Under the pieces are notes generated by a model. It ran no database searches and had not been told where the DNA came from. It worked only from the letters and a program-made list of their open reading frames with translations. A stretch of DNA of 64,000 nt from the NCBI GenBank assembly GCA_050273025.1, contig CP158635.1, forward strand, positions 12,462,001-12,526,000, written 5' to 3'. Shown here piece by piece: positions 2,600-32,682 of the stretch (position 1 is its first letter; each line of letters starts with the position of its first letter). The position numbers were made by a program, and so were the translations under genes. Source of the stretch: Cenococcum geophilum (lineage: Eukaryota).

Positions 2600-3248
2600 T
2601 TTATTTAACTGGGTTTGGCTTTAATAGACCTTTTCGGACATAATAAATTTTATAAAGGTATAACTCTAAAAGGGAATATATTGCCAGTAGATAAATAGTA
2701 TAAATTTAGACAAAGCTAAGCTCTATCTAGGAGTAGTATATGTTCTCTATATAGGTTCGCGCTATTAAAAAGGACCTAAAGTAGGGGGAAACAGCGACCT
2801 AAGGATTGTGGGTAAGGGCGTTAAAGTTATTATAAAAATGGGCCCTAGGAGGTTCTGGTAGGAAATATACTAGTTAGGAAGTAAATAAAGGCTATATCTT
2901 ACGTAATAGATTTAGCAGCCTATTTTGTTAGCTAAGGAAGAACTAGTATAGGTAATAGTAAGTATACAGCTTCTGCGCGATAAAGAGATTAAAGAGGTAT
3001 AAAAGAGGTGGATTATATACTTAAATAGAGTAAAGCGGAAAGGATTTAAGAATATAAATAAGTTATAGAGTCTAATAGGCGTATAAATACTCGAGGCATT
3101 AGTGCCCAATAAGAGATTAATATAAAAATGATTTGGGCGGCGTTGGCTTAGCCTAGCTTGCGCCCTACTTTATATAACCAGCGAGTATTAGCCTCTGTAA
3201 AAAAAGTCAGCTTTGTGTCTAGTAAAAAAGAAAAATTAAGGCGTCCAT
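2600..3248 (-). pseudogene. RIP-inactivated hypothetical ORF
   Basis: ATG at 3248; a long single frame broken only by RIP-type stops (MDALIFLFL..TRWLYKVGRKLG..PYPQSLGRCFP..). Family not recognised; 3' end approximate. Confidence 0.4.
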
Positions 3249-6189: not shown

Positions 6190-6315
6190 CTCGCAATCCC
6201 TTAGCAATCTCTTAGCAATCCTATTATAGCCCTATAATAACCTTATAAGACTCTTATGGGACTCCTGCGGGACTCCTCTAGGACTTCTATAGGACTCCTA
6301 TAGGAATCCCCTAGT
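6190..6315. repeat. Degenerate ~11-bp tandem array (GCAATCTCTTA / GGACTCCTATA)
   Basis: Read directly; a related array lies in inverted orientation at 9550-9662. Confidence 0.65.
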
Positions 6316-6940
6316 GATTTTACGGTAATCCACAGGACCTCTATCTCTAAAATCTACTTGTCGTTTTAGAGGATAGACGTTAGCACCTAAATAAGGTTAT
6401 TTTCCCTCTAAACCTAACCTTCTTTATTTTTAAACTAAGAGTTTAATACCTACTAGACCTCTAGTTGCCCCCAGTCTAATTAAGGCACAGATTTCGTAGC
6501 CCCTGCTTTATAACTAGCACGCTCCTCTAGATTTTACTACTAGTGTTTCGCGGTATGTAAGAATTTAAACACTTCCCTAAGGATGTCATTTCAGCTCAAG
6601 CTTAAGCTTAAGTCTTCTTCGATCTTGGCCTAAAGCAGTTAGATCTAGTAAGCGTTACTTAAAGGGTTAACAAAACAAGCTTATATGCATTTAAGCCAGA
6701 GATATTAGATGTCGATAGTTAGTTATTAAAGTCAATGTGCAATAATATTTATTAATCTCACTAGGTAAAGCATTACGTGTACCAGAGGCTTCGGATTACA
6801 GCTATACCCCGCCAAACCTACCCCGCGCGGCTTAAAATTTTAAATAGTAAAACAACAATAACTTTAAACTAACGGTAGAACGACTAAGTAATAAGTATAT
6901 AGATATTAAAGTCGTTAAACGTAGCGGGCAAGGGCTCTCT

Positions 6941-7400
6941 ATGAAAGAAGATCTTAGTAAGGCTTTGCAAGCTTTTATAGAAGATGGGTTTCTTATTCTT
7001 AAAAGAGCTACAAGCATTAAGCCCCCTTTAGCGGAGTTATCGGAGTTATTAAGCTTTATTAAAAGGGAGATTGTTTTAAATAAGGTAAGCTATTTCTAAA
7101 GTTTATAAGCGAGACTAACATCCCTCTAGGCTGTTAAAATAATACTTTTCTTGGCTTAAGATGATGGCTTTTGTATTGCCGCCTACCTTCTATCTAAACC
7201 TGCTCTAACCCGTAAAGAGTTAGGGCGCGATTATAAATAGGAAAAAATAGCTTCTGCTAAAGATCTTATAGGGGCTATATGCTATTATTTAGGAGGAGAT
7301 TAAAATATTACATAGATATTCCAGGTTAATGTATATTCTCGTAGAGTAACTACTAGGAAAATAGTAAATGTTAAGGCTAATAGAGGTGATATGTATGTAC
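6941..7400 (+). pseudogene. RIP-inactivated intron-containing hypothetical gene
   Basis: ATG 6941 (MKEDLSKALQAFIEDGFLILK..). Intron GTAAGC ~7085 ..ACTAAC..CTAG ~7129 preserves frame; next donor GTATGT ~7392. Confidence 0.45.
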
Positions 7401-7959
7401 TCTTAAACCCTATAAATATTTTCGCATTTACTAAACTTCCTCTAGCTTTATTTGCTATTACTAGCTATTATAGTTAAGACCTTTCCTTAAGAATAAACCA
7501 CCTTCCCTAGTATATATAATTGTGGTTTTATATATATAGACCGGGTATCCCGGGCGCGAAGTACTGGATAATTAAACTGGTGATAAGATTCTAGAGTAGT
7601 TTGGAAATAATTACTCTAGAAGTAGCAAATATATAGTTTAGAAGCGATAACTATATTAAGTGGCACGTAAAAGGAATAAAGATTATTGCTTATAGTTAGC
7701 TACAGATTCTCCTATATATCCCTCTACCGAAGTATTAAATATTGCTTTAAGCCTAGACGAGAACTAGTAGCGCATAATTAAAAGTAGATTTAGTTTAGAA
7801 GGGGGGCGATTTAGCGAGCTTAGGAGGCGGTTCTACAAGTCACGCTAATACGCTTTAGTCAGTGCTAGGCTATAGCGGGGATTTTAAAAGGCTTATGCTA
7901 GGCCTATAATGTTTAAGTCTAGATTAGAGAGTAATGCATTTGTTATACTAGGACCCTCT

Positions 7960-8870
7960 AGGGAGAATAACTACTATATCAACTTTAATAGAAGGTTAAA
8001 GGGTATTGTGTTAAATATATTTTAATAAAATAACCATACTTCTGCCGGAGAATTAAAGGGTACCATATTTAACGGGTTTAAATCGTCCTGGGAGAATGGC
8101 GGCTGCATTAGTTCTGGTAAATCGTTAAAGGGCGTGGCATTAAACGTATTCCAGCGAAATGACTATACTTGCCCTATCGCATTTAAAGTATTCCAGTTAT
8201 CCTATAGGGGCGGCTGCTATATCGGCTCTTGTAGATTATTAAAGGGAGTGGCATTAAACGTGTTCCAATAAAATAACCGTACTTACTCCGCTGAAGAATT
8301 AGTGGCTACCGTACTTAACGAGCTCGAATTACCCTGGGAGGATAGCGGCTGCATTGGCTCCGGTAAATCGTTAAAGGGCGTAATATTAAATGTGTCCTAA
8401 TTGCGATTAAAGGGCGTAGCATTAAACGTATTCTAATTAGGCAGCTGCACTAGTTCCGCTAGAGAACTTAAGGGTGCTATACTTAACGTGCGCCTAAACA
8501 GCTCTCTGCGTGGCTGTAATACTAATTGCTTAAACTCTACTTAAGAACTAGAGGGCGTTGCCTTAAATTTATAAATATTCATGTGCTGGGTAAAACTTGA
8601 TAGTCTTTAGAACTCTTATTTATATATATAGTAGTATTTATCTAGTTAACTCTTTTCTTTATAGAACTTCCTTATATATTTTTAGACATTGTACGACTTA
8701 CTAAAACAGCGGGTGTAGAATAGATACGGAAATTTCTTTAAAGGCTTTTTCCCCTTTTTAAGAGATAACATATAATCCGTAGCTTGTGTGTTATTCTTAG
8801 TCTAATAATACCTAACATTCCGCTTACTTTAGTAAGGTTTGGAGATTGCAGAGTGACCGCGTTTTCGCAT
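7960..8870 (-). pseudogene. RIP-inactivated gene encoding a repeat protein (WNTFNATPFNDLPEPMQP-like units)
   Basis: At least 4-5 related DNA units at 7960-8570 translate on the minus strand to W(N/D)TFN(A/T)TPFN(D)L(P)EPMQ(Q)P. Candidate ATG at 8870. Confidence 0.5.
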
Positions 8871-9549
8871 TGGAGGTATTGCGACGTGTAGGGTTGTACT
8901 AGATTCCTAAGTTTTAGTAGATAGAAATTAAATAGGTTTTATTACTTACAATTCCTACACCTTTAAATACGTGTTCTATATAGTATAGGAAAGATATCTA
9001 TAGTTCCTGCTATATAGGGGACCGAAGGCTTTAAACTATCCCTACTGTAGTTAATAATGGATACTTGTTATTTGCGCAGGAGGCTGCTAGGTGCCGCGGG
9101 GGAATTAGCGTAGATCTCTAAGGTCGCGGACTTTATTAAGCTTCGTTACTAAGTAAAGAGGCTACCCATAATTAGGAGGAATTGTAATACTAAAGGAGTT
9201 GTTATACGGATACTAAGGAAGGCAAAACCAGGGCTTATTATTGGCGAGACTAGGGAAAGATTAGGAGGAATAAGAGCGAGAATCCAGATAATGCGCGTTA
9301 CGTTAGTATATTACGTGTAGGCTATAGGGGCTAAGCTTATTAAATAGAGAATTATAAGCCGCTAGGGCAAGAGTACTAGAAATAGAAAGCGTGCCAAGCA
9401 AGCCTGTGCCTTAGTAAAAGAGGTACTTGGAGATATTAAGGCCTAAAAAGGCGTATATAAAAGAAGGCGGCACTACGGATATGGCTGCTGAAACTAATCT
9501 TATAACCCTAGCTACTCTCACTACCTTTTTTTAGCTTAAGGAGGCTAGT

Positions 9550-9662
9550 TTCCTAAGGCGCTATAGGAGTTTTAGAGAAGTCCTATATAAGTTATATAGG
9601 AGTTTTAGAGGAGTTATAGAGGAGTCCTAAAAGATTCCTAGAGGATTGCTAAGAGATTGCCA
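9550..9662. repeat. Degenerate ~11-bp tandem array, inverted relative to 6190-6315
   Basis: Reverse complement begins gcaatctcttagcaatcc..ggactcctctat, matching the 6190-6315 units. Confidence 0.6.
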
Positions 9663-11702
9663 TTAAGGGGCACAATATTCTATAAAGGTGGTTAGAGGGA
9701 ATTAGGCTGTAACCTAGCCTTATAGCCGCCCTATTACCTTACTACCCTATTACGCTATTGCCTTGTCGCCTTATTACCTTCTTACCCTTTTTTACTTTGG
9801 TTAATCTCTTTATTAGCAGGACACCCCTACTTTTTAAAACAATATATAAACTTCCTGTTATAGCATTTATTAGCGCTAAGTTTATTTATTTACTTATTCT
9901 TAGTTAAGTAGTGCTTTTATAGCTTCGTTTACCAACCACCTTACGGCGTTCTCTCCGCTTTTAAATAATTTTTTACTTCCTCCCTCTTTAAACTATTTTT
10001 AGAGTCTCCCTTTATTACTAGCTTAAAAATATCTCTCCTATTTCAGCCAAGTTATTATACGTATTATTAGAGCTGTCCTAGTGTACTAGACTAGCTATTA
10101 AGGTTTATATATACAGCCTCTTTAAGTAAATTACTAACTAAAAATTAGGCTTTATTCTTGTGGAGATTCTATATAAATATTCTAAAAACTATTTTTAATA
10201 AGGATTTCCTAGTCGTTACCGGCATTACTATACTTGCCTTTCTACTCCTAATTTCCGGCTTCGTACTAGTATTCTTCCCACGACACTAGACAATAGGGCG
10301 TTCGTTAGCTTTCTTAGGTGGTCTCTTAATAAATACATTATTGGGTATAACTCTTACTACTTTTACCTAGATAGTGAGAAAACATAGAAGGTTAAAAGTG
10401 TTATAGCTCTTATGCGCTACGGTTATTCTTATACCATATTCTAGCATTTACTTTACATTTATTAATATATATCTATTCCTTTCGGTAAGCTACTATAGTA
10501 ACGCTCTAGTGACTTCTACTAACAGAAATAGGGACACTCTCTTATAGAATGTATTACGAACGTTGCCGTCGTTTTACTACAAGCTTGGTCGCTTTATATT
10601 AAATACCAATAGCATAACGCGATATCTTACGATATACCTATTAGCCCTAGTGACTCGGAGAAAGCTATACGGAGATATTCGAACCCTAAATACCCCGACC
10701 GACCCATTAGCCCCGATGACTTAGAGGAAGCCACAATATCAAACCCTAAATCCTCCTATACTAAAACTAATTGTAGGAGGAATGGGTTAGTTCTTAGTTA
10801 TCTTAGTTACTTCTTAGGCTAATACTAGCTTAGTAGTTTTAAAATTTACGTTAGCCATTCCGTTAACATAACCTACAAAGCGCGGAGAGAAGGCGAGACC
10901 TTTTTATCTAAGAATTTCAAAGCTATAGACAATCCCCTGCTGGATAAGGGCCTTTAATCTAAGGCATATAGCCTATAGTAGGATTACGTCTTTCTACCTA
11001 AGAAGGTCGAAGCTATAGATAACTTCCTGCCGGATAAGGTTTTCCTTAGAGATAATCGCTATATACTTTAGTTATACCTTAAACGCATATGTCTTAAGCA
11101 AGAGTGGAGAGACTTTATATCCCAAATGCTAAAGCTTAGTAACTTAAGGGGGGAGGCTATAAAAAAGCTAAGGCTGTAAGAGGTATATATAAGGAACTAT
11201 CAAGTTATTTAGGAGGAATTTTCTTCCTAGGTAGCAGCTATATATAGACTTTGTTAAAACTCAAAGCCTCTTACTACCTTTAAACTTCCTTAGAAAACCT
11301 AGCTAAGGTACAGCTCCTCCTTTAAAGGCACGTAGTATTATCTGAAATTGCCTTATATAGCTAAGGTTAAGATACACTCCATTAAAGCCACTAAACACGT
11401 CTCTAGCTTTATGCCTCATTATATAAAACCAGACTGTGGTTTTCGTTTATTTTTAGGAGGGAAGGCCTTATATAGAGTCTTTTGTCATTGTATAAAACTT
11501 TTATACTAAAAGTATACTAAATTTTCAAGGGCTAGGAGCGGGGACACGCTAGCGCTCCACGACTTGGCCAATTACTCCTAGTTATGCGATAAAGCCTTAA
11601 TAAGTAACGGTCTAAATATCTATAGGTTTTATTGCAGATGGGTGACTAGGGTAATTGGGGGAATATATACCTAAGCACGAGCCAGAGTGTAGCGCATTTG
11701 CT

Positions 11703-12377
11703 TTACCCCTCTAAAATGGTTAAACTTTTATATTTTAAAGTCTAAGCCGCGATCTATGGGGTAAACTACTAATTTAAGAAAGCCCTAAATACTACCCGCT
11801 CTCTTACTCGTTAATCTAAAACGTGCTAGCTCCTGCGTATTAACTAGCACCGGAACTAAGCCTCTATATATAGCCCCGTACCTTAAGCCTATTACTTAGC
11901 TTAAAGTTAGGAGGATATTAGTATAATTTAGCACTCTGGGGCTTGCCAGCTTAGCTACTAAAACGCCTTTATATCTGCAGTGGCCTACTAATAGATTTTT
12001 TTATAGGTAATTAGTGTTCCGTTTTTGCTTTCTAGGTTAATTAGCGCCTCCGATTTTAGGCCTATGTATATTTTTACTGCCTCTAAACAATTAGGGTTGA
12101 ACTATATTATAGTTAGCCCTCCACTAACCTTTGCCACGTATAACTATATATCCGTATTAAGTTGCTAACGCCGCCTTCTAATGCATTTAGCGTATTAGGT
12201 TTGGACCTATATATACCCTCGTCGTTCTAGCAAGATATTAGCCACGTATAGTATGCTTAACCTTTAACCGGTCTTCGATATGTATATAGCATGGCGTATA
12301 CTATTGTTTTATTAGCCGATGTATTAATAAACCACTAAGTCCAGACCTCCAGAGCTGATATTATTGTTACTTACCAT
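11703..12377 (-). pseudogene. RIP-inactivated hypothetical ORF
   Basis: About 220 codons in one frame broken only by TAA/TAG; family not recognised. Confidence 0.35.
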
Positions 12378-13218
12378 ATTATATCTTCCTAGGGAGGTTT
12401 CTGATCCTAAGGATACTCTTATAGCCGCTCTTACAACTCTTAAAGCCGCCCCTATAGCGGTGAGATTTTAAGTCCTTACCGCTAACTTTAACAAAAGCGT
12501 TCGCATGACCGATGGCAATCACTCTATACTTGTTTATGTTGCAATGCCTCTTAGTAACCACACTATATTAAGTTTAGAGATCCTTTGTAATACGATTTAT
12601 AAAGAAGGTATTAAGTACGTAGTTAGTGCGTATAATATTTCCAGTAAAGCCTATAAAAAGCTTCCTAATAAACTTACGGTTTTACACTACTGTCTAAGTA
12701 TATATCCTTTAATAATATAATTTTTTAGACTAATTGCAATGTAGAGCGAGGGGCAAAAACTAGAAGAGAAGCCTTTAAATAAGCACTTAAGGAATATATA
12801 GCAGAGCAACGGAATAAAGGATGGATTGCATAAATGGCTAAAAAGCTTAGGCTATAGGGGTAGGTAAGCCGGCTTACTTACTACTAAATTAAGGGTGCTA
12901 TGTGTTAGAGGCTACGGAAATACTATTATCCAATTATATAAAGGAATGTTTTGTAGGTGCACGGGAATAATTAGAAAATTTTATATAGACTATTAAGGAA
13001 TGTAGAGTCCTATAAAATATTTTCGTCGTCATTTTTTTAAGACAAGGTTTAGAATAAATAAGACTTGGTATAGCTTGGACGAAGGACCTAGGGTGTATCT
13101 ACTATAAAGACTAATCTTATCCGAGAATAGCGTTTAAAATCTAGGGTAAATAATAGATTAGTCAGCTAGACACTGGGATTTTTCCACCTCTTTAAAGCCC
13201 TTTACTACTTCAATACTT

Positions 13219-13960
13219 ATAGACCTTATTGTAGTGCCACCCCCTGGCTGCAGCTGTAAGAATCTTATCGGCTAGGGAATTTCAGGCACTGTGTATCGCG
13301 ATAAACTTCAAAACGAGGTTATTAAAGCTCTAAATAACGCGAATTCTCGACGCTTTATTGAAGTTGAAAAGGAGATCTATAAGAGACTTGGTTAATATAA
13401 TGGACTCTTACAATATTATGGCAGCGAACTTTTCTAGAAGGATAACCGCACGGCGATATGTCTAGAACGCGCTCTAAATAGCTAGCTTTACGGGTTTCTT
13501 CAGGACAAAAGTAATAACATTAATCGAATTTTATAAATGCGTTAGATTTCATAGCTTGTGGACGTTCTTAAATATGTTCACTCCAGATATATTATATACG
13601 GTAATATTTTATGCTATAATATTCTCTTAGATAAACATTTAAACGCAAAGCTAATTAACTTCGCTAGTTTATCAATTAATAGGTCTCCTCTTCTTGTTTT
13701 GTACTCCGTTTAAGCCCAAGCTCCGTATTTAAGCATGCCTTAAAAGGATGAAATTTTTGCCTTTAGATCGGCTTATTATTATATCTTAATGCGTTATGTC
13801 GCCTTTTATAAGCTTTCCGATAACGATATAGAAGATCGTTATAAATAAGGAATATTTCCCGAATTAAAGTCCCTAGGGGCCTTTAAAGTCATTATTAGAG
13901 GCTATTAAAACGGTAAATATAACTATATAAATAACGTTATTAAAGAAATAGATAAGTAAG
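13219..13960 (+). pseudogene. RIP-inactivated protein kinase gene (fungal HGD..DFAGSS-type kinase domain)
   Basis: One frame gives LIG*GISGTVY (Gly loop), VIKA, EVEKEIY, YVHSRYIIYGNILCYNILLD (de-RIP IHGDISCHNILLD), KLINFASLSIN (DFAGSSID) and DEIFAFRS. Donor GTATGT at 13961; further exons possibly to ~14535. Confidence 0.85.
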
Positions 13961-14848
13961 GTATGTTTATAAAACTAGAAATTTTAACTATCTAAACTTA
14001 TTCGCAGGTTTACGGAATCCATCCCTAGTAACGGCGCCGCGGCATTTCCTCTATACTCTTAAGGCTTTCCTTTTAACGTTCACGAAATCTTGTCTTTAGC
14101 TTAAAAATCTAAAGGCTTCTCTATCCAGATTTATACCTTACCCATTTCTTAGGCGTTATTGGCGTTAATAAAGGTAAGTTTTATGCTTTATAAGTCCATC
14201 AGTTTTACTATCCTTCTATATAGTATAATATACTAACTATCCTTTATTTAGGACATGCTAGACAATCTCTAGTTGCTAGTAAGCTCCTAAACTGCGCTGT
14301 ACTTTATATTACAGGTATTGGGTTAAGACACGCTTGCCTGTCTTGTGTAATGGCGCTAGGGTAAGATACGATGCGATTTATCTTTAAGGAATGTTTTGGT
14401 CTCTTCTAGCACTTTTTATATTTAACGGTAATCTTAGTAGATTGGCATATCTTAAGTATAGAGAAGTTTATAATTCGACGAATTCTTTTAAGTATATTAA
14501 TAGTAAAAGAGAGGATTCGTGATATAAACGAATAGGTACTATAATGCCTAATAATATAACAGGTCTCACAACTTATAAGGCTCTGTTTTGATTAAATATG
14601 CATAACACAGATAAGTTGGTAGCAAAATTTGGATAAAAATGGCTGCATACAGCAATACCGTGTTAAAAAAATGCACTTAAATAATTGGACTACTAAATGT
14701 AAACCCCGGCTTCCTATTTCCGCGGGACTAACTAAAATATAAGGATACGCCTAAGCTACTAGCCCCGTCCCTTTTATATGGTAACTCTACCCTTTATTTC
14801 CGCAACTTTAGAAAAAGAGTGCACCTATAACGATCTAGCTTTGGCTTA

Positions 14849-17650
14849 TCAAATGCGTCTTTAATAAAACTTAAGGGCATCTTTAGAATTTAAAAGCCCG
14901 CTTTTATAAACCTAGGTGGGCTTCTAAGCCACCTTATATTTGCGCCCTAACTTAGTTATTCTTTCCCCTAAAATATTATTGATCTCCCATTTATTATCCA
15001 AGCTCACTTTATTAATTTTATCTTTTTTAGTCTGGGTATAACGCTTTATAGCAGGCTCTGGGTTTAAAACGTCGCTCTAGTTATTAGCGGCGCCACCGCT
15101 ATTACCGTCCTCGTCCTTATTATAAGTATAATTACTAGCCTTATTATGCGGCGGTTTAGAGCTATAGAGAAGAGTAGGCTCCTAAAGCGAAGGGCTAGCG
15201 GGCTGTAGAGTGGATACCGCTTGCTAGTTAACTTGTAGGTATTAAGAGTTAAGGTCGGGTATAGGGGGGCTAGAAGACAAGTCTTCGCGATAGGCAGGTG
15301 GCCTTTATTACTTCTAGGGACGCGAATTATTACCACCCTTACTACCCCCGCTACTCTCTTTAGTAGGGTTGTTAGAATTATAATTAGTAACGTCGTCCCG
15401 CTTAAGCTTCCGCTTCTTTAGCATAAAGGATAATTCGCCTTCCGTATTCCCTTTTTCGTAATTACCCTCCCTAATAAGCGGATTGTCTATATATTATGGT
15501 TATTAGGTTGTGGTAACGATATTTTCAATATCTATAACTTACTAATATTATCTATATTATTGGCTATTAAGGAGTTTTGGTTAGTTACTATGTGGGTCTC
15601 TAACTTCTGTATAGCCTAGGGGACAGTTATAATATTAATTCCCTTAGCTAGGCTATCTATTTCATTGACGTCTTCTGCCGTAGGTTTAAGATGGTTATAT
15701 ATAGATGCGCTAAAGAGATCTTCCAGCTCCTTTAAAGAAGGTAACTCCTTATCCTTATTGTCCTTATCGCTGTGGTCATTTCCACTACCTAATAATTATT
15801 AAGCAAGGCCGTTGTATAGGGGGGAAGTATATACCTAACCCATAAGGTGCTAGTTAATCGCCGACTTTATTAGCTTTATTGTTAGTATTACTAGCTCTAT
15901 CCCCTTCGGCTTTGGGTTCTAAGTCTAGGTTAACTATATTATCTTTAATAAATATTAGATTCGCTACTGCCCATTAAACATATTTATAGTTATTAGAAAA
16001 AGGAGGGGATAATTACTAAATTACCTTAATTACTTCCTCTAGCGTCTTAGCTGTTACTTATATTCTTATAAATATCTTCATACTCGTTAAAAGCCTTAGG
16101 ATCTACGGGTGCTTTATTAGGTGGAATATTTAAAAAAAGTAATATAGAATAACTTGCCTAAGCGTAACCAGGCCAAATATTTTACAGAATTATCTCTTAG
16201 AGGGAAGTAAGGTACTCTCCCCTTTTTTATCCTTTTTTTAAGTATATTACTTACATTTGCCTTAAAAGCCGTAATTATATAATACTAAGAAGCCTTCGGT
16301 TTTTTAGGGGGTGCAGTATAGAAATTAATATTATTAAGTAAAATTTATAAATTAAAACGGAGGGGTTAAGAAGATGCTATTGTTGTTACCGCTATTATTA
16401 TTAGAATTATTATTGCCTTATGCCTTTCTAATAGCCCTAAAGGACGGGTTACGCTAGGCTTTTAAGTCTACGCCAGTCCCCTCTTCACCACCAGCTTATA
16501 TCCGCAGTATCTATACTAAAATAACCCTATTAACTTAATAGCAAATTAAAACATGTAATCTACGCTCTGTTAGCAATTACCGTTCACAATATATAAAGGT
16601 TTATATGGGCTTAAACTCTATTATAAGATTAACGCCTATTAGGAAACTATAATCGAGACCCAACTAATTAAGCTAGTACATTTAGCCTCTAATAGGGGCA
16701 TTACACTAAGCCTCCTTATTAAGGAGGTTAGTAGTAAAGTACCTCTACCCTTATTCCTTAGAGTTAGAGCTAGCGCTAACACATCCGTTTTTTAACCCAA
16801 TTATGCTAGCAAACTAGATCTTCCGTACTAAATCTTTTATAAGACTATAGTTTCTAGGGTTAAATAGGTGGGGGGCGTGCCGTAATTCTGCTATAAGTAT
16901 TAAAAGACACTCTAAGTAATAAGGGCATCCTTAAATCTCTCCCCTAGATCTAAGGAACTTCCTTAGTCATACTCTATGGAGCCTATAGCCGCTACTTAAC
17001 CTCCTAAATATATATAAAAGCCTTACTTTTATCCTTACCTATAGCCGGATATCACAAACAATATAAGGGGGTAGATAGCGCGAGTAGATTAGGCGATCAC
17101 GCCTATATCTATCTTACTATATCCTTTTAGCTAATGCAGCCACCGTATAAAGTCCGTCTCCGTTAGGAGATTAAATACGCGAATTTTTCTCTAGTATTCG
17201 TCAGCTAAGAGCAAGATTATAACACTAGCTCTACTAGAAGCCAGGCTATACTACTAGATAGGCCGTTTACCCCTAGATTCCGCCTTATAAGTCTTAGGTC
17301 TATATAAAGAATATTTCCGTATAACCTATACCTCCTTAGCTAAATAGGGGGCTAGATTAAACTAAAGCCCGGTGGCTTCTCTAATCGTAATGCAATCCTC
17401 TAATTATTAAGGAAGAGTAAGGTCTAGGTCTAGGTTAAGAAGGCGCTAAGGAGGGCGAGGGCTTCTAGCTTCTAGCGGCGCAGCTTTAACCAAGCTAAGT
17501 AACTAGCATCAACCTATAGTTTCGCTAAGGACCCACTTCGGCGTCCGGCTTCGCCTTTATTGTGATGCTGTAATGCGATACTGCCTAACGCGTCCTATAG
17601 CTCGCAGTAGCTGTAACCCGTATAATCTATTACTAGGCGGTTTTCGGCAT
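14849..17650 (-). pseudogene. RIP-inactivated multi-exon gene(s) ending in a chromodomain
   Basis: The C-terminal frame at 14850-15005 reads KWEINNILGERITKLGRKYKVA*KPT*VYKSGLLNSKDAL (de-RIP EWEIDNILGER..G..YKVAWKPTW..), a chromo-like signature. A long upstream frame starts at ATG 17650, with a TATAAAAG at ~18,075-18,081 (minus). Whether this is one gene is uncertain. Confidence 0.55.
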
Positions 17651-18184
17651 AGCTATTTATATCTATTCTAATAGGGATTAAGTTGCATATTATAGTTACG
17701 TCTGAGACACTGCTAGAGGCGGAGGTAAAGAAGAGGATAAACGGAAATGTTATTCTGGTGCACTAATCGGTAGGAGATATGGGCAAAAGAAGAGGAGAGA
17801 GAAGAGGAAGAAAGGAGGAATATGGTAGGACTAAAGCATGCGTTAACACTAGAAGAGAGTATAAATGTGTCCTATAGAAAGGGCCGAAGAGTTATAGCGC
17901 TAGGTAATCGTTAGTATAAAATATATAGAGATTAGGGAAAAGGTAGAGCACCTATATAAACGCTAAGGGGATAGAAAATGCCTTATGGCTAACAGCTAGA
18001 GTCCGAGGTGGCACGGTAGCGGGAAAGAAAAGAGGAGATAGAGCATAAGGGCAAAAGTAGTAAGGGAGAAGGCCTTTTATAGTTGAGGTTAAGGTTGGGT
18101 CTTAGCTAAACTAGGGTAGGAAAGCGAGCGCGCCTTGTTTATAAAGGAACCTCCATTTCCTAATGCGTGGTCTCCATTTTATTT

Positions 18185-19051
18185 TTTACTAAAGAACTCT
18201 TTAATTGGATTTAAATCCGGTAAGTACATAGGCAAGTATATAAGCTTTACTCTAGCTCTCTTAAAGAGAGTAGTAATATACGGTAAGTAATAGAAGCTTA
18301 TATTATCTATAATAACTACTAATCTTAGTGCTAGATAAGGATTATAGTAAGGTAAGAGGAAGTGTTTAATCTAATAGTTATAGCCTTCTGCGTTTGTTAA
18401 GCTACTATATACTAATAATACTAGCACGCCTTTAACGGTATAGGCGGGTAGTATATTAACTCTTTACTTACTATGGTTGTACGGTATATATAAAATAGGT
18501 ATAACTCCTACTGGTAACTAAGACGCCTTCTATATACTAGTCTTTAAATTAGCTCTAGATTTATTTATAAACACTAGCTATTTAACGGTGAATTATAAAA
18601 TATAGGCCTAGTATAAGTTGCGGTCTTTCTAGCTTTGCTTAAAAGTAACTCTATAAGCCTTATATACTTAGCAGCTTCCTTATATATATAATAAAAGCTT
18701 TCTTACTAGCTTCCTATTCTAGCCAGTAACTCTTAATTCTGCACTAAGCGTTTGCCTACTTATAATAATCTGGTATTAATTATAGATAAACTATATTATT
18801 TTGTTAAGATATATATTTGGGGCATTATTTAATTGGTAAAGCAATGCGATGATTACCTTATTGCTTAGTAGGCGTCTTAACTTATATTTGCGATTAAGCT
18901 TTGTCTTTCCGTGCAGCCTTAGATTTCTTTAAATAGACTAGATTAATCTAGTAGAGCAGTTAGCTTAACGGGCGTATTAACGTTTAGTTGTACTAGCTAT
19001 AAGAAGGATTTCAATAAAGGCGTGCTGCTAACTGCCTATATTTGGAGCCAT
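18185..19051 (-). mobile_element. RIP-inactivated Tc1/IS630-type (DD34E) transposase gene, 3'-truncated
   Basis: ATG 19051 (MAPNIGS..), one intron (GTAAGA ~18,707). Motifs are LVFINKS (=LVFVDES), ILPAYTVKG, VIIDN and YLPMYLPDLNPIKEFF (=YLP.YSPDLNPIEEFF), with 34 residues between the second D and E. Similarity stops right after FFS. Confidence 0.88.
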
Positions 19052-19202
19052 ATTAATAAGAGGAAGAAGCTTTAGAACACCACGATCTGGTATAGATATC
19101 ACGACTTTAGTAGGCAGGGGGCAATAAGATTAGCTTCAAATTCGAGGTGGCTCTGGTGGCCTAAGCTAGGGCTACACACTACACCTCTTCCTGCTAGCCC
19201 TA

Positions 19203-19969
19203 CAGTTGGGTGTCATAAGTGTCCGTACTAAGCGAATTTTCAAGACAACCTACCCTATTAAATTATATATAACAACCATATAATTAATTTTAAAGCTTTA
19301 AAAAATAGCTGAAGTTTATATTATATATTAAATCTAGCTATTACAGCTTTTTTTTTAGTTTAAAACCTATAACTCTTTTAGAAATCCTATTAGTTCCCTA
19401 ATAAGATCTATAATATTTAATATATATTTTCTACTACTAGATATTAATTTTTTTTAAAAAAAAATTAATATCGCATAAAGATTTATATTTATTGTAACTT
19501 AGCATATTTAGAATATCATTTTAAAAGTATAAAAGTTTATTATAACGTTATAAAGTTGAAATTTTTTATTTTGTATGAGGAATTTCAATTTTTTCTACTT
19601 TTTTGACTTTATAACCCTACAATAATTTTTTATATATTTTAAACAAAAATTTAAATATAGAGAGTCTTAGTAAAAGCAAATCTCTATAAAATATCAGAAT
19701 TTTAAGAAATATTTTTAATCCCTAGTAGTAGAAAATATATGCTAAATATAGTAAGTTTAGTAAAAAATTGGTAAAACATCGAGGCTTTTAATAAAGGACT
19801 GTAAAATATAAGACTTTAAAAAAAGTTATAATAGCTAGATTTTATATAGTAATAGGCCTTATAACTATTTTAAAGCTCTAGAATTAATTTTGTGGTTGCT
19901 ATATAGTAATTTAGCAAAAAATATCACATTTGGTGTGGTCTGGGCACGGACACTTATGACACCCCACTG
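19203..19969. mobile_element. Non-autonomous Tc1/impala(mimp)-like element, 767 bp, TA target duplication
   Basis: 24-bp TIRs CAGT(T/G)GGGTGTCATAAGTGTCCGT with 1 mismatch, flanked by TA at 19201-2 and 19970-1. Extra internal inverted repeat at ~19,260-19,445 vs ~19,715-19,912. Confidence 0.9.
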
Positions 19970-20413
19970 TACATACTAATTTAGCTGCAGGTTTAGCGAA
20001 ATTAGATGTGTACCGCTGCGCGCCAGGGGGGGGGGAGAAGCCGAAGCTCGTACAGGCTGTAGAGTGTAAGTTTCGTGGAGCTCCTCTTTAGCATTTGCAA
20101 AGAACTGACTGAAATGGTAATGTATCTCCAAGTTGGACTTTTGCGCCTTCTCCGACTTGAACGTGCTGGGTGCTCACGAAGCATGAAGTCGATTTCGCTA
20201 GCGACTGTAGCACGAGCAAAAACCGGGGAAAGCCTCCATGCTTTCCACGCCTGCTCCCTGGAAACCCTCTGCTCCGTAGAAATATAGCTGTGACAGCAAC
20301 ACCAAAGCTTCTTTCTTGAACAATCTGCATCACCGATCGACTGCAACATCTCCAATCGGGCTCCACGCCAACCATTCCAACTTGAGCCACACATAATTCC
20401 CTCCACATTCACA

Positions 20414-21148
20414 ATGCCATCACCTACAATTGCCATCTGCAAATTTGTCGGCACTATTAGCTTGGGTCTGCTCACGGTACGCGCTCCGCTCTCCACTCTC
20501 CGGTCACCTTGACATCTCTCCACCATGTTCTTCGCGCAATCCACCATCATAACCCCAATTGCCAACCCCAATTCCCTTCTTTCCTTCATCTCCTCTTCCT
20601 CTACATCCACCCCAGCAATCCCACCCCACCCTTCCACCCTATCCAATCCACCATCCCTGCCCCTCCCTCCCCTCCCCACCACCCCCCAACTCCAAAAAGC
20701 CAACCAACTAACCAAACCCCAGGGCGTCTCCACAACCCACAGCACCCTAACCCTCCCCTCGCTCCTCGCCCTCCCCACCGCCCCAACAGCCCACACAACC
20801 CTCTCAACCCTCACACACTCGACAACACACCTCACCCGCTCCCTCCGCCACCTCTCCACCTTCGCCCTCCTGGCTGCCTACTTCCTCTCCCCCCGTCGCA
20901 GCCGCCACCCCTACCTGCTCTACACCTCGCTACTAGCCCTGCTCTCCGGCCCCGCCGTCGACTACGCCTTCGCGCGCCCAGCCCAGCCCACGGCTCGCGT
21001 TTCTTCTGCCGCTGGGGAGGAAGACGTCAACGGCGAGCAGGTGCGGCAGGCGGTGGAGCAGATGCGGGCGGTGGAGGGCGTGAGGGCCGGCGTTGCGGGG
21101 GCGGCATTCGCGATGGCTGTGGTGGGGATTTGGGGGGATGGGGCCTGA
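20414..21148 (+). CDS. ATG33: Atg33/Scm4-family mitochondrial outer-membrane protein (~162 aa); exons 20414-20476, 20723-21148
   Basis: MPSPTIAICKFVGTISLGLLT|GVS..LPSLLALPTA..AYFLSPRRSRHPYLLYTSL..VNGEQVR..AFAMAVVGIWGDGA matches remembered family motifs. Intron GTACGC..ACTAAC..CAG is in frame. Confidence 0.8.
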
Positions 21149-22243
21149 GGTGCTTCGTTTTGCCGTTGCTGGGTCGGCGGTCCGGGAGTGAGTGGCGGGA
21201 GTGGCGTGGGGCTGCGCGTATTATCAGTATGTCGTGGGACTGCGCGTGTCATTAGTATGTGTGGGACTATGGATGAATCGGATCAGATCGGGTTAGGGTG
21301 CTGGAGTTGCGGTAGATTGGTGTATTGGTATTTGGCGGGCTATGCTGGATCGGCTGGCAAGCAGACAGATGGATGGATGGGTTAGTGGAGGGCTGGTCGT
21401 GGGCTGGTGAATATGGTGTTCGGTGATGTTTGCCTTTGTGGGGTTCCATTGCTTTTGGGGTTCCGGGGGGACAAGTTTGGGGAGGGGGAATCTCTACTCG
21501 AAGTATGGCGTCTCTACTTGAATGCAGAAAACGCTGACTCCTCTCTCACTCTCTCTTATCTGCGTGCGAGCTCGCCGTGCATTGATATGCTTCTAGGCGT
21601 GCCGATTGGTGCAGCGCTGAGGCCGGATTTGTTCAAAAGTATCAACCACAGTGGTGCTGCTATCTAAGAGTATCCGTCATGGCAGGGTCGCTTTGCAGAA
21701 GTCGCAACCGCGGAGTTGTCAAGAGGTTCGAAGAAATCAGTGGTGTAGCAATTCAGTAAGGGATTTCAAGATTAAGAGCATGGCAATCACTGTTAAAGCA
21801 GAGACAGAAGAGTGATCACAGCGCATTGGGAACATTCTATCGAAGAAGAGAGTGTACAAAGGAGAAGAAAGAAGAACACCAAGTCACCTCTAGCAAACGC
21901 AAACCCAATCCCACTCATCATCCCCGTAAAAGAACAGTAGTGAGAACCACCAACTCATTACACAAAGCCTCTATCGTACAGATGATCGAGAATAGGATGT
22001 TAACATCTCTTAGACTTGTGGCCGGTCAGCCCGAAGACCATTGTCGCACATGCAGCCACCTTTGTGTACTGCCTTGAAGTAAGCTACGACTCAACCTATG
22101 CCAACGCAAGGTTAACACAAGAGACGTTGCTAGAAGGCTGTGGAAGTTTCATCACTTACACTTCTTGCCGGAGTCAGAGCAGCAGCATTCACTGCAGTCA
22201 CAGCCGCCGACTCGACCAGGGCTGCAATCCGATTAGTCTCAGC

Positions 22244-27818: not shown

Positions 27819-28102
27819 GGGATTCTGCATGAGAGCGCTGGTAGAGAGGAGGAATGCCGAGAATGGGAGAAGATGAGAAAGCCCAGGTTGCACGGTCCAG
27901 ATCACGAGAACATAACTCTCTCAAGTGCCAATATATTATACAGCTAGGTGCTATAAAAATGGAATCAATATACAAGACTTGAAAAGGAATAAGTCGAGGT
28001 AGAAGCAGCGAAGCCATACAATACATATCATCAGGCCCACTCGATACCTGAGCTTAATTGATTAGTCTTGCGTGACCGTTGACTAGAACAGCGGAAAGGG
28101 GT

Positions 28103-29188
28103 TTACGTGCCACTTGCCCCATAACGATACCACCTTTGCTGTGCTTCGCTCCATCTCCAGCCACCTGATGTATTGTTAGGAGGTGGTGGAGCTTCCAGTG
28201 CTCGGGTTAGCTCTTGCGTCCTCCTTTCTGTTTCAATACGATTCTCTGCCCTGCGCTGTTGAGCAGCGTCTTCTGTCTGCCTTGCCTCATCTGTAATGAA
28301 AGTCAGAGCAGAACTTGGAGCCAAGACCGTCGTACGTGTACAAGGAATAAATCTGCAGGCATACCCTTCCCAACAGGGTTTATGGTTAGGAGGAAAAATT
28401 CTGGATTTTTTAGCAGAATTTCTTTCCCAAGTACAACCATTTCACCAAGAACCACATCGAACGTGGCATCTTTAACAACTAGGAAACGGTCGTCGAAGCT
28501 TTTAGAACTTCTTTTATCCGGTAAATTGAAGGTCCATGTGGCATAGATTTGATAAGCAGGCCGGAGCTGTCCGGTGCCCATATTGAAGTCTGGTCCGTTG
28601 TACCTCTCAAGCTTATGACCGAGAATTAATGCCTTCTCCTCGGACATGAAGTTTGCATCTGATCCAACATCCAACCTTGCGCGCATGAATTTATCTTGAC
28701 CTCTGTGATCCTTGACTATTATATCGCGAACCATTGTACTCGTAGAAGTGTCGCTTAGACTTCTGGGGGCCCCTGGCCTCTCAGCAGAGTTATTCATGGC
28801 CATGTTTTCCTTGTTACGACTTTCGTAGGAGGAAGAACTACCATAATGGGGCCTTGATGAAGAATGTGTAGAGTTAGCTGTAAGAACATTCCTATCGGAG
28901 TATATTTTGAAGGATGAAAAGGCAGAGCACTTTGACGCATTCACATTATACAACGGTCATATAAAATAATGAAAATATAGCTCTTTACCTTGAATTAAGT
29001 GTTCGGGTAATCGCTTCAGGTTGGGTCGACTGTGAAGGTTGAGCCACCTGGGTAGACGGCGAAGGTTGTACAGGCTGGCTGGACTGCAAGGATTGCTTTG
29101 CCCAGTGATATATGAGCGAGGCGCCATTATTGCTAACATAGTAATAATCCATATGAGTATCACTCCATATCCAACCTTTATCAGCCAT
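28103..29188 (-). CDS. Retropepsin-like (retroviral-type aspartic protease fold) protein, ~290-304 aa; exons 29188-28989, 28891(or 28852)-28365, 28290-28103
   Basis: ARLDVGSDANFMS..LG..YNG..F..GTG..P..I.ATWTF..FLVV..FDVVLG is a retropepsin pattern. Both introns (GTAAAG..AG; GTATGC..CTGAC..CAG) keep frame. WxWS..YY-like motifs occur at both termini, with a charged helical segment before the last. Confidence 0.75.
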
Positions 29189-29368
29189 TTTCGAAGAGAA
29201 ATGATAATCTGACCAGACAAGGCTGAGACGGACGTATACCGGTTTTAACGCCCTTTCAATCGTATTGGCTTGGCTTGGCCTGGCCAGGCTGAACCGTCCA
29301 ATAAGTTCGAATTAGAAAGAAGTAGAAAACCAATACGTGACCGAAGTGCCCGCTAAGAAAGCTAGAGA

Positions 29369-30347
29369 ATGGTAGAGAAACAGACGGGCTATCCTGGCCT
29401 GGCGAAGGTGATGGGGCCGCACCCTGGTATGGCTCTGTTCAAGCGATTCGCTGTGCTGAACGCGCGGAACCTCCTCTACATGCAGGCTGAACTCATCGAC
29501 CTCGAGCTGCAATTCGATATCTTGACGTCGCAAGATCATACCTCCAGTGATCCGCGACGACGAGCCTTTGCGAAGGAATTCCTGAAGCTCAGCGAACCGT
29601 TGGACGGCCTTCAGGCGCAACAGTGGCAAAAGGCTCTCGAGATTCGGGAAAAGTTGAAGGAGTACAGTAAGCTGTCACTCGGGCTCAGCGTGTCTATTTA
29701 ATATTACACTGACGGATGGAGCGGATGCTGCATTGTTGCAGCAAGCAGAGGTGAATGCGCTTCCTGGCGCAAATCAGTACGACCTCGGAATCTTACGTCA
29801 ATGGCTTAAACATCTTTCTGGTGGAGCGGGGTTTCTCTGCGGTCTAGAGGCAGCACCATGGCGGGACGGTGATGGAGACGACTTGGTCGCCGTTTCTACA
29901 AGCTTGAGAGAAAACCTCGATGTTATCACTCGGTTGACGGCGGAGAAGCTCGTGCCATGGCTTCATAAGAGGGGAACACACCGTTGGAGGGTTGGCCTCA
30001 CCTTCAATATATCCCTCCTATTTCAGACTGACACCACTGCATAGACTCCCCTTCCCGGCCACGAAGAGGTAGGACTCGTTGAGTGGAAAGATGCACATTT
30101 TTTTAGGTTGTCACGAGTTCTTAGCGTCATCATCTCGACCTTGTTTCCCTTCATTGCCGTTCTCGTGCTGTACCTGATTCATAATCTAGCTTCACGGCTT
30201 GGGGCCGTTGTAGCCTTCTCCTTCCTTTTTTCGACTGCATTGGCTATCTTTACAAATGCGCGGCCTGTTGAGATCTTTGCTGCAACTGCGGCGTGTGCAT
30301 CTGTTCAAGTGGTTTTTGTAAGCAGCACTAACACTGCCGGAGGATAG
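29369..30347 (+). CDS. DUF6594-type protein with C-terminal transmembrane helices (~289 aa); exons 29369-29666, ~29722-29990, 30045-30347
   Basis: GYPGLAKVM..LFKRFAVLNARNLLYMQAELIDLE..QWQKALEIREKLKEY..LRQWL..DLVAV..RLGAVVAFSFLFSTAL..EIFAATAA..VQVVFVS is the characteristic family pattern. The intron 1 acceptor is non-canonical. Confidence 0.85.
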
Positions 30348-30938
30348 CAGACTCATCGAGGTACTAAATTGATACCGAGCATCCATGGTGGCCCACACCT
30401 CTTTCCACTTGTGGTTATTTACCATAACGCATACATAAAATGTAGATTGAGGAAGAAGGATTGTTACGAGACTGTGGACTTCGTATTCCTGCTGAACTAT
30501 TATAATATAAACCTTAATTACAATATCTGAATGTACTACCGAAACAAGGCGGTATCGCAAAGCTAAAAATTCCGTAAGGCAACCACAATCAAACCATTGT
30601 ATCGCTCATCAATTGATAAGTTTGCGGCCAAGGTATCAAAAAGGAAGACTAACTGCTCAGTTCCTCCTCGAGGGAAGCACTTATGGGAGTACCCACCAAT
30701 ACGCTGCGGGCCCAATTCGAAAACAAAAGAAAGCCAAGCAGTGGAAGCAGCGGCAATTGTAACATTACGCTGGATACAGCATAGGGCAACATTCAGGGAC
30801 TCAACACCAAGCGTGTGTTAATAACAAGCACCTGAAATATCTCACCTGCTAACGGCAGGAAGACCAACTCAGCTCTCCCAACGGCCACCCCAACTCATTC
30901 ATGTAAATGCCAGTTTTTACTCTCCCACTACTATCACC

Positions 30939-32682
30939 TTATTTCATAAGTAGTGAGTTTTTGCCCGCGCCAGAAAGCGAAAATCTCTTTACCTTGCCAG
31001 ACTCATCGAAAAGATGCGGGTTCTCCTTGAAAACGTCATCATTCATCAACATCGCAGAGGTCTCGTTGAGCTCACTCCTGATTCTTTCCGTGAGTTCTTT
31101 CACAGTCTCTGAAGAACAGTTGTTGGACATGTAAGGACTTCCGGGAGGGGTTGTTGAGTCCTTTGATCCTGCTGTTTGCATTGCGTTATCGTCCAACATC
31201 ATCACAATATCGTCCGTTTTTGGGAAGGGATATTTCTTCCTAGGAGTGTCCGGCTTCGCGTTGTAGCCTTTCTTCCTCATATTCTTTTCCACTTTCCTGA
31301 AATATTGCTTCTTTGGCCTCCCAAGTAACTCTTTCTGATCTTCATTTAGAGCATACAAATTCAGATATTTCCAATCTTCGGAGGAGAGGACTTGAACAGG
31401 TATAACGACTTTCTCTTTGCCACATTTGCTGATCATGTCAGTACCTTTTCCGTCTTTTAAATCTTTTCCAACAGTGTTTTCTCCAATCACTACAACTTCG
31501 CCTCTGAAAACGCCTTCCAACTTGCCCGCAATTTCATATCCAGATCCTTGGGCCCACGTCCTGAGGGTAGTGCCATGATCCAAGAACAGAGCCAAAAGCT
31601 CTGCCATTCCACTTTCGCCGCGCTTCTTCGCTTCTGCCTCTTGCCGCAGCGGGCGGACAACCGTCGCCTGAAACACCGCTAGCACATCAGCGGGGTGCCG
31701 ATTGTGGCGTTTTGCGAAACCAATGTGATCAAAGGAGGCAAGAAGCTCGTGCGACAGGTCAAAGTACTCGCTCCTTTCCCAAGGCGTCCAGTTTTGGGTC
31801 TTCAAACTGAATGGGATCAGTTTGGGTAGATCATAATCCAGGGTACCAAGAGGTGAAACTGTCCTCGAAGATTCCCATATGGATGGCGTGGACGGGTTAG
31901 CCATGAAAGGACTGACTAAATTCTTCGAATTTGGAGCAGGGGTTAAAGTCACGCTTTTGGGAGGTCCCATGGAGGCGGGTTTGGTAGGTGAATGCCTAGA
32001 TGGTGTCGGTGGCGGTGTCTTGAAAGCAAGCCCTGGATCCGTCGTCGCTGAACTAATCTGAGCAACCTGCGTCACTTGTGCATCTCTGCCGCTTCGAGAC
32101 TTGCGGGGCTGAGGAGACACATCACGCTTCCGGCGCTGGGGGACCGAAGAGGCGGGGCGATGTGTTGGTGTGTCAGGCTCGTTTTGAAGATGGGATAACA
32201 TGTGACCAAAAGAAGTCGTTTGAGGAGTTCTTGGGGTTCTGATATGTCTCGGTGATGTAGTGAATGACATGGAACTCGGCTCATCGCTTGTCAGATCAAT
32301 GACCTCGACATCAATCCCAAAAACGCTATCTGGGGAGAAGCATATTTCAGACTTGCGAAGCCTTGGTGGGGTTTTCACAAGATCTAATAACGGAGACTTG
32401 TTGAAGCGTTTTTGTCTTTCAACCGATGGCGAAGGTTGTGGTGGGTTAACTGATTCTTCACATATTAGATATTGCAAAGGGCCAAAGGTGCAGAGCAGCA
32501 GACTTACGAGGTTCAAAAACCTTTGTTGCATCTGCCGGTTGAACGGATTTCGTCTCAAGGGGGTTGCTAAGCTCTTTTTTGTCGGCTAGAGTGTCGGCGG
32601 GCTCGCTGTTCACTGCATCCTCAGGCTGCATGCCAAAAGATCCGCCAGTGATGAAAGTAGTGGAATTGACTTGGTCCCCCAT
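30939..32682 (-). CDS. Hypothetical protein (~563 aa), S/T/P-rich N-half and SHD1-like segment; exons 32682-32508, 32455-30939
   Basis: Intron GTAAGT..TCTAAT..AAG joins the 32682 ATG frame to the long ORF in frame. LRTW..G..IAGKLEGV..G.V..KVVIPVQVLSSEDWKYL resembles the Sla1 homology domain 1 pattern. Confidence 0.7.

Follow-up and report, generated by a model that had tools for sequence, protein, structure and literature searches.

In a 64,000-nt stretch of the genome of the filamentous fungus Cenococcum geophilum (contig CP158635.1, positions 12,462,001 to 12,526,000 of the forward strand; here called the window), two genes stand head to head. Gene 1, on the minus strand, encodes a protein that we assign by homology to a retropepsin-like family, and gene 2, on the plus strand, encodes a DUF6594 protein. 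We conclude that the two form a genuine module, inherited together and so far undescribed, and are no chance neighbours, since comparison of loci indicates that the divergent pairing has been kept in at least four lineages besides that of the window, down to 33-37% identity, without the flanking genes. Transcript evidence comes from the metatranscriptome contigs X10 and X12, which are identical to the window, and from a stranded raw-read run, X21. The features of the locus are as follows.

27928..28030, minus strand: 3' untranslated region (UTR) of gene 1, to the limit of the RNA contigs (X10 contig to 27933, X12 contig to 27928)
28031..29188, minus strand: coding sequence of gene 1, retropepsin-like family protein, 294 aa (open spliced translation and RNA joints)
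28366..28734, minus strand: putative retropepsin-like domain, residues ~107-229 (MVRDII...NPVGK; homology via relatives and alignment consensus)
28660..28671, minus strand: position of the catalytic motif (D-V-G-S in the window, D-C-G-A in its clade, D-T-G-A/M in the family consensus)
29189..29368, no strand: ATG-to-ATG spacer, 180 bp, mostly transcribed as 5'UTR of gene 1
29369..30347, plus strand: coding sequence of gene 2, DUF6594 protein, 289 aa (Pfam PF20237 on all three exons, RNA joints)
30099..30326, plus strand: three predicted C-terminal hydrophobic helices of the DUF6594 protein (AlphaFold 2 model, hydropathy, conserved columns)
30348..30493, plus strand: 3'UTR of gene 2, to the limit of the RNA contigs (X10 contig to 30492, X12 contig to 30493)

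Gene structure and divergent transcription

Gene 1 begins with the ATG at 29188 and comprises four exons on the minus strand (29188-28989, 28852-28365, 28290-28111 and 28047-28031), separated by introns of 136 nt (GT-AG, ending at 28853), 74 nt (GT-AG) and 63 nt (GC-AG). The first two introns are spliced identically in P0002, a protein from a public assembly, and the 74-nt intron is also found in four raw reads of X21. The 63-nt GC-AG intron (28048-28110) lies near the stop codon, is present in both RNA contigs as a splice joint, and changes the C-terminus from ...GASGT to ...GASGIEWA. A first-pass annotation of this stretch, made by a model from the letters alone, had recognised the gene but let it end at 28103, the stop that would be reached if the last intron were not removed; because this third intron had been overlooked, the end of the coding sequence moves to 28031. 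Gene 2 comprises three exons on the plus strand (29369-29666, 29722-29990 and 30045-30347) with GT-AG introns of 55 and 54 nt.

All five introns, three in gene 1 and two in gene 2, are spliced out in the X10 and X12 contigs, and two of them also in the raw reads of X21. The two genes lie on separate contigs in X10, with word depths of 56 and 70, and on one 2,209-nt contig in X12, which spans both spliced genes (27928-30493). The first mates of X21 all map to the plus strand over gene 1 and all to the minus strand over gene 2, indicating opposite-strand transcription; this run represents a related allele, with 120 of its 126 mapped reads 95-99% alike to the window. Runs X22-X24 contain almost no words of this stretch, which is not evidence of absence. 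Both genes are real, spliced, expressed and divergent, and the RNA joints and opposite-strand reads confirm the head-to-head, intron-containing arrangement with 180 bp between start codons that the first-pass annotation had described.

The 5'UTR of gene 1 extends at least to 29361 (the end of X10 contig 1), 8 nt from the ATG of gene 2, and in X21 six molecules end at 29345 while the strand switches in the bin 29356-29446. The two transcription starts nearly abut, near 29345-29370. Since the leader of gene 1 reaches 29361 and the X12 contig reads through, the starts stand back to back and the spacer is mostly gene 1 leader. The 180 bp, in which the first-pass annotation had supposed a shared promoter, are thus for the most part 5'UTR of gene 1 and not free promoter.

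Two observations concern the 5' part of gene 1. Coverage in X21 is 20-54 over the first exon and leader (28991-29355), as against 0.5-3 over the remainder of the gene, with many reads starting at 28991 and 29002 and many ending at 29345. This pile-up could reflect a short RNA from the 5' end, terminating at the first intron, or a mapping effect of the strain's indel in intron 1. At window position 28892/28893, inside intron 1 (28853-28988), the four loci of the window's own clade (L001-L004, described below) carry 160-205 extra nt that the window does not have (L001:2204-2395, L002:1937-2141, L003:7266-7463 and L004:884-1043). The extra stretch is translated in P0007 as an additional Glu-rich segment, and P0001 and P0003 begin inside it. 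Since it is found in all four clade loci, the comparison points to loss of a facultative exon or intron part by the window allele.

A retropepsin-like family with few annotated members

The product of gene 1 matched no Pfam family at E<=1, whether its exon translations or P0002 were used. A word-based search returned only six close relatives (85-100% identical), and an exhaustive phmmer search of 1.84 billion representatives returned 38 relatives at E<=0.001. Among the 35 relatives that were scanned, 17 match retropepsin-type Pfam models at E<=0.01, and five (P0012, P0014, P0019, P0027 and P0039, with phmmer E-values to gene 1 of 6e-10 to 4e-4) pass the curated cut-offs. The alignment has the family consensus RA.LDTGAD.NFIS ... 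FLV...PFDV.LG, in which the second conserved block (hydrophobic-D-hydrophobic-hydrophobic-L-G) is present in the window as FDVVLG, with D132 and G136 near-invariant. Because the relatives match retropepsin Pfam models, we accept gene 1 as a retropepsin-like family member by transitive homology, its fold being assigned through those relatives. The retroviral-type protease fold claimed for it in the first pass has indirect support only, through relatives that reach retropepsin models; the window protein has no Pfam match of its own and carries the motif D-V-G-S, not D-T/S-G-A.

Structural comparisons gave little more. A PDB profile search with the family yielded nine weak matches (E 0.14-0.42), seven of them to DDI1/DDI2 or the equine infectious anaemia virus protease, one to an entry named 'PROTEASE' and one to a DARPin; a single-sequence structure of exon 2 was unusable (predicted local distance difference test score, pLDDT, 35). 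The nearest neighbours of the gene 1 protein in feature space (Atlas) are retropepsin and retroelement-type protease clusters, with scores of 0.83-0.85 that serve as a lead only. No relatives of the family were found in prokaryote genomes (0 matches). By homology, gene 1 belongs to a fungal branch of the retropepsin clan that has few members, most of them unannotated.

The protein consists of a variable N-terminus, the retropepsin-like domain and a charged K/E/R-rich tail, and has no hydrophobic segment. No N-terminal hydrophobic segment fit for a signal peptide was seen in either protein of the pair by inspection, no predictor having been run. Pfam at E<=1 detected no UBL, HDD or UBA domain in gene 1, and a WW-like reading of its N-terminus (GW...YYYV...W) was dropped, there being no Pfam match at the same threshold.

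Four proteins, including Macrophomina MPH_12805, carry this domain joined to DUF6590 (three of them among the 35 scanned relatives), and one cluster member with a D-T-Q motif carries it fused to Kelch repeats (the DUF6590 and Kelch fusion proteins are P0015, P0018, P0035, P0108 and P0129). The retropepsin-like domain thus appears to be a module joined to varied partners, DUF6590 being another uncharacterised fungal family.

The DUF6594 partner

DUF6594 (PF20237) is the only significant Pfam match of gene 2; its exons 1 to 3 score 66.2, 27.6 and 71.7 bits, respectively (cut-off 30), and jointly span model positions 1-238. A near-identical full-length protein, P0044, carries PF20237, and the 64 relatives found for gene 2 span Dothideomycetes, Leotiomycetes, Lecanoromycetes, Sordariomycetes and Eurotiomycetes. 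In an AlphaFold (AF2) model of P0044 built on a 57-sequence alignment (pLDDT 89.4, predicted template modelling score 0.74), a long helical hairpin (28-57, 84-110) is followed by further short helices and by C-terminal helices at 203-231, 235-256 and 261-285. These last three coincide with the Kyte-Doolittle 19-residue peaks of 2.53, 2.06 and 1.75. Conservation in the family peaks in the last helix and immediately before it, where the stretch T.AR..EIFAATAA is near-invariant. The model and the hydropathy profile describe the DUF6594 protein as a predicted all-helical integral membrane protein with a soluble helical N-terminal part; both agree with the helical N-part and C-terminal hydrophobic bundle of the first-pass annotation, and Pfam with its DUF6594 assignment.

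Searches for a structural relative were negative at the thresholds used. Foldseek of the DUF6594 model against the PDB gave nothing at E<=0.001, a PDB sequence profile search gave a best E of 0.44, and a wide VIA-align comparison gave a best Z of 9.0 from generic helical hairpins only, within the noise of helical models. ESCRT-III, AhlC, XaxA, colicin Ia and designed bundles were set aside as likenesses, their VIA-align hits being no better than this helical noise. Pfam detected no DNA-binding or other signalling domain in the gene 2 product.

Conservation of the pairing across loci

We scanned metagenome contigs with a 12-sequence alignment (A2) of the protease-like family, another alignment (A1) being too divergent for locus search, and searched the resulting loci with DUF6594 proteins, with Pfam and with a hidden Markov model built from the DUF6594 alignment. 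This identified 13 loci with the protease-like family. In all eight informative loci, defined as those with at least 1,102 nt upstream of the match (L001, L002, L003, L004, L005, L006, L011 and L013), a divergent DUF6594 gene lies directly upstream on the opposite strand, with 708 to ~1,200 nt between its nearest coding base and the start of the protease-like match. The other five (L007-L010 and L012) extend only 22-524 nt upstream and are uninformative, so they were not counted as misses.

Four of the eight, L001-L004, belong to the window's clade (88-98% nucleotide identity, collinear up to ~15 kb) and are not independent of it. The others represent separate lineages: L005/L006 (89% identical to each other in the protease-like domain), L011 and L013 have protease-like domains that are 33-37% identical to that of the window and 46-61% identical mutually. 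A fifth lineage with the pair comes from an annotated genome, that of Oleoguttula sp. CCFEE 6159, in which the protease-like protein P0041 (LTR04_007121) and the DUF6594 protein P0068 (LTR04_007120; Pfam E 1.5e-51) have consecutive locus tags, which establish adjacency but not orientation, on a shared 24,100-nt contig. Adjacency in annotated genomes was judged from consecutive locus tags, and this was the one pair among the named proteins. D-T/S-G is retained in four of the five paired lineages. The first-pass annotation had named a lack of retropepsin genes beside DUF6594 genes elsewhere as the outcome that would speak against its two-gene module; no such lack was seen, and the pairing at eight of eight informative loci and in Oleoguttula, together with joint expression, bears the module out.

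Within the 132,478 nt scanned (the window and 13 loci), DUF6594 occurs solely as the partner, apart from one extra copy in L013. This copy (L013:2981-3929, minus strand) is a second, divergent DUF6594 of another subfamily, convergent downstream of the protease-like gene, so that DUF6594 genes flank the protease-like gene on both sides in that locus. When all open reading frames (ORFs) of at least 60 aa in the gene island around the pair were compared with the distant loci, matches were confined to the two pair genes. This holds also for L006, where 10 kb is available on either side and the flanks have unrelated Pfam content.

The two genes also diverge in parallel. Identities in the protease-like domain of 89, 58-61, 46-49 and 33-37% correspond, over the same comparisons, to DUF6594 identities of 78, 66-69, 51-62 and 35-42%. 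The DUF6594 partners of L006, L011, L013 and LTR04 cluster with one another in the tree of that family (Shimodaira-Hasegawa-like approximate likelihood ratio support 81-99), apart from the window's clade. The tree of the protease family likewise places these loci within a single 22-row clade (support 97), and the window's clade lies in the other half of that tree. The trees of the two genes agree in outline.

The estimated ATG-to-ATG spacers elsewhere are 373, 388, 400 and 549 bp, as compared with 180 bp in the window; the lengths outside the window rest on first in-frame ATGs, without RNA verification. No 7- to 9-mer is common to at least four of the five spacers, which accordingly give no sign of a conserved promoter.

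A degenerate active-site motif and its alleles

In the family alignment, D-[TS]-G is present in 25 of 44 members, leaving 19, the window included, without it (six D-T-Q, three D-C-G, two D-M-G, and one each of D-V-G, D-T-A, D-T-K, D-T-S, D-V-A, N-T-Q, K-F-D and R-F-D). The window retains the catalytic Asp itself and lacks the canonical D-T/S-G-A. The Thr/Ser and Gly of D-T-G form the hydrogen-bonded active-site loop of the dimer. Because these residues build that loop, many family members are probably poor enzymes or non-enzymes, and catalysis in the window's own allele has probably been weakened or lost. The V and S of the window motif are derived on its own branch, through C-to-V and A-to-S replacements, and the X10 and X12 RNA contigs and an X5 DNA contig show no letters other than the window's at this site; this agreement rules out an assembly error as the source of the window-type allele. 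X21 has the alternative state at several replacement sites, and therefore two allele types circulate.

The selective regimes of the two genes were compared among the window and L001-L003, with L004 excluded from the estimates of dN/dS (the ratio of nonsynonymous to synonymous rates) as a low-quality contig with scattered 1-nt gaps in both genes. The DUF6594 gene is under purifying selection (dN/dS 0.08-0.22). Gene 1 has values of 0.28-0.40 among L001-L003 and of 1.37 between the window and L001 (20 nonsynonymous to 4 synonymous changes, or 12:1 in the protease-like domain alone). When changes were polarised with L002 and L003 as outgroups, replacement to silent codons numbered 14:1 for gene 1 on the window branch, 2:2 for gene 1 on the L001 branch and 1:2 for gene 2 on the window branch. 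The 14 replacements out of 15 do not significantly exceed neutrality (binomial p about 0.13) and lie well above the clade background of ~0.35 (binomial p about 0.002).

Setting of the pair in the window

The pair lies in a gene island (~20-39 kb, GC 43-57%) flanked by AT-rich blocks of 27-41% GC. Usual cut-offs exist for the dinucleotide indices of repeat-induced point mutation (RIP). TpA/ApT is 0.78 in the island at 20-39 kb, 1.56 and 1.73 in the flanks and 0.69-0.85 in the two genes, and (CpA+TpG)/(ApC+GpT) is 1.24, 0.62 and 0.43, and 1.27-1.28, respectively. These values point to a RIP-type dinucleotide bias in both flanks, and to RIP-like repeats around the island, and they agree with the earlier description of both genes as non-RIPped (0.78/1.24 in the island vs 1.56-1.73/0.43-0.62 in the flanks). 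The AT-rich sequence with strong RIP-type bias that borders the 19-kb gene island covers window positions 1-19800 and 39500-64000. GC skew is strongly positive from ~44 kb and flips sign at ~56 kb, as if large degenerate repeats were oppositely oriented there.

Elsewhere in the island, positions 20001-22000 form its GC-richest stretch (54-57%), with a skew of -0.44 followed by +0.29, and contain long overlapping ORFs at 20002-20877 (minus strand) and 20461-21255 (plus strand) in which no Pfam family was found. A repeat search of this GC-rich, strongly skewed region (19.5-23 kb) returned one AT-rich hairpin only. Directly downstream of the DUF6594 gene, an uninterrupted 548-aa ORF (30939-32585, minus strand) has no Pfam family; it is kept in collinear loci of the window's clade (L003:3549-5192) and unmatched in the distant loci. 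Among the 17 island ORFs scanned, none contains an NLR, HET, S8 or CHAT domain.

Discussion

The reading that we favour, at a probability of roughly 45%, is that of a co-inherited, co-transcribed module of filamentous ascomycetes in which the retropepsin-like protein acts on its DUF6594 neighbour, the biochemical coupling being the part that we infer. The product of gene 1 would be soluble and probably cytosolic, and the DUF6594 protein would present a helical N-terminal domain held at the membrane by its three C-terminal helices; if both are cytosolic, their soluble parts can meet. Acting as a dimer at the cytosolic face of the membrane, the retropepsin-like protein would bind the N-terminal domain of DUF6594 and, where D-T/S-G is intact, cleave it and so change the state of the membrane protein. 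Since catalysis is probably weakened or lost in the D-V-G-S allele, the protein encoded in the window would more likely be a binding or regulatory partner. Conserved divergent gene pairs with short spacers in fungi are more often functionally related, according to PMC2871058, which is in keeping with such a coupling.

Several points weigh against this view of the pair. The gene 1 protein of the window has no direct Pfam match, and its fold is assigned solely via relatives; it carries D-V-G-S in place of the consensus D-T-G of the family, and since 19 of 44 members lack D-[TS]-G, catalysis seems dispensable in much of the family. The D-V-G-S motif together with the 14:1 burst of replacements argues, on the alignments at hand, against simple protease gating in this window. 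The loci sample two protease-like clades only, those from which the search patterns had been taken, and the D-T-Q types and DUF6590 fusions lie outside the sample. DUF6594 proteins, a very large family, far outnumber the very small protease-like family, and most of them presumably work without such a partner. Finally, short divergent spacers are slow to break in fungi (PMC2871058), and conservation alone is therefore no proof of a biochemical link.

This last point leads to the main rival explanation, in which the two genes share a compact promoter for both directions, across a spacer so short that rearrangements seldom part them, and the proteins are not directly linked in their biochemistry. 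The abutting starts and ATG-to-ATG spacers of 180-549 bp fit it, fungal divergent pairs with spacers of 100-1000 nt being the most conserved class (PMC2871058). However, the pair is kept at 33-37% identity while all other flank ORFs differ, both genes evolve fast and yet co-diverge, no motif of 7- to 9-mers is shared by the five spacers, and conserved divergent fungal pairs are enriched for functionally related genes (PMC2871058); we therefore regard regulatory inertia as rather unlikely to be the whole account. A selfish or mobile two-gene unit, either a toxin-antidote pair or transposon cargo with the retropepsin-like gene as a relic of a long terminal repeat (LTR) retrotransposon, would explain why the pair is shared and the flanks are not, and it is consistent with the position of the island among RIP-like repeats and with the retroelement-type protease clusters nearest to gene 1 in feature space (0.83-0.85, a lead only). 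Such a unit is nevertheless hard to reconcile with the absence of reverse transcriptase, integrase, gag or terminal repeats around the pair, with one pair per locus, introns in both genes, ordinary purifying selection in the relatives and collinearity of the window-clade loci up to ~15 kb, and we consider it highly improbable. In keeping with this, the comparison with retroviral and retrotransposon proteases (RVP, RVP_2, gag-asp_proteas and Asp_protease_2) is one of distant kinship: relatives of gene 1 pass these models, and the domain of ~120 residues with LDTGAD...FDV.LG is alike, but gene 1 is stand-alone and intron-containing, without gag or pol, and the window protein, with its D-V-G-S, fails the models.

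Two further explanations borrow from known protease systems. By analogy with the HET-Q2/HET-Q1 gasdermin pairs, the protease could activate or guard a DUF6594 executioner in a cell-death, allorecognition or defence module. A protease-type gene adjoining a gene for a membrane-acting protein, in partner families associated over long evolutionary time, is indeed a layout shared with the fungal gasdermin clusters such as Podospora het-Q1/het-Q2, where an S8 protease is encoded near 63% of 1,884 fungal gasdermins and a CHAT protease near 19% (PMC8851545). The replacements in the window lineage of gene 1 (14 to 1 silent, against 2:2 for L001 and 1:2 for gene 2), the two circulating allele types (X21 with the other type at several sites) and the island between RIP-like repeats also count in favour of this reading. 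The likeness is limited to layout, however. The proteases there are of S8 or CHAT type (PMC8851545), whereas here the protein is retropepsin-like, with a degenerate catalytic motif in the window and no NLR-type architecture; the gasdermins are soluble, whereas DUF6594 is, by sequence and model, an integral membrane protein built of helices only, whose hydrophobic helices are constitutive and which matches nothing above the noise of helical hairpins. No NLR, HET, S8 or CHAT domain occurs among the 17 scanned island ORFs, and the 14:1 ratio is not significantly above the neutral expectation (p about 0.13). A cell-death role is thus improbable, and the gasdermin-like, protease-gated effector of the first-pass annotation is not sustained, given no gasdermin or pore-former match, a different protease class and 19 of 44 members without D-[TS]-G. 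A bolder version, which we hold to be about as improbable, postulates a new class of protease-guarded membrane executioner, in which the retropepsin-fold (pseudo-)protease would silence or switch on DUF6594, the conserved small-residue helix of DUF6594 would form a membrane lesion or channel, and allelic diversification of the protease-like partner (14 replacements, including the motif) would set self/non-self or anti-parasite specificity.

Alternatively, the module might release a membrane-tethered factor, as in the DDI2/NRF1 system, with the cytosolic helical domain of DUF6594 clipped off its anchor and the fragment signalling elsewhere. DDI2 activates TCF11/NRF1 bound to the endoplasmic reticulum (ER) (10.1101/2020.12.16.423023), and cleavage of an ER-bound substrate by a retropepsin-fold protease is an established mechanism. 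The parallel extends to the presence of a retropepsin-fold protein in the cytosol and of a partner that is anchored in the membrane and has a large cytosolic part (here predicted), since DUF6594 combines a large soluble N-domain with a C-terminal anchor, and the weak PDB profile matches of the family are mostly to DDI1/DDI2 (E 0.14-0.42). Yet this similarity is not significant (E 0.14 or worse), gene 1 lacks UBL, HDD and UBA, the genes of the DDI2 system are not neighbours, Pfam finds no DNA-binding, transcription-factor or signalling domain in DUF6594, and conservation in DUF6594 is highest in the last membrane helix, not in the soluble part; release of a factor is accordingly quite improbable.

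What is new here is a conserved partner gene for part of the DUF6594 family, of which gene 2 is a regular member with full-length model coverage over three exons and no difference found. A search of the full-text literature for DUF6594, PF20237, DUF6590 and PF20233, with supplementary tables outside its reach, returned no relevant paper (one unrelated match). DUF6594 is a large Pezizomycotina family without an assigned function, and a co-diverging partner is the first handle on part of it, identifying concrete proteins to express together. Those members of the protease-like family without an intact motif offer a natural case for the transition of a retropepsin fold into a pseudo-protease. If proteolytic or regulatory control is true, the pattern of a protease beside a membrane effector would extend to another protease fold and another effector; were the executioner version true, it would provide a first function for a very large Pezizomycotina DUF family and add a third protease class to the control of fungal cell death.

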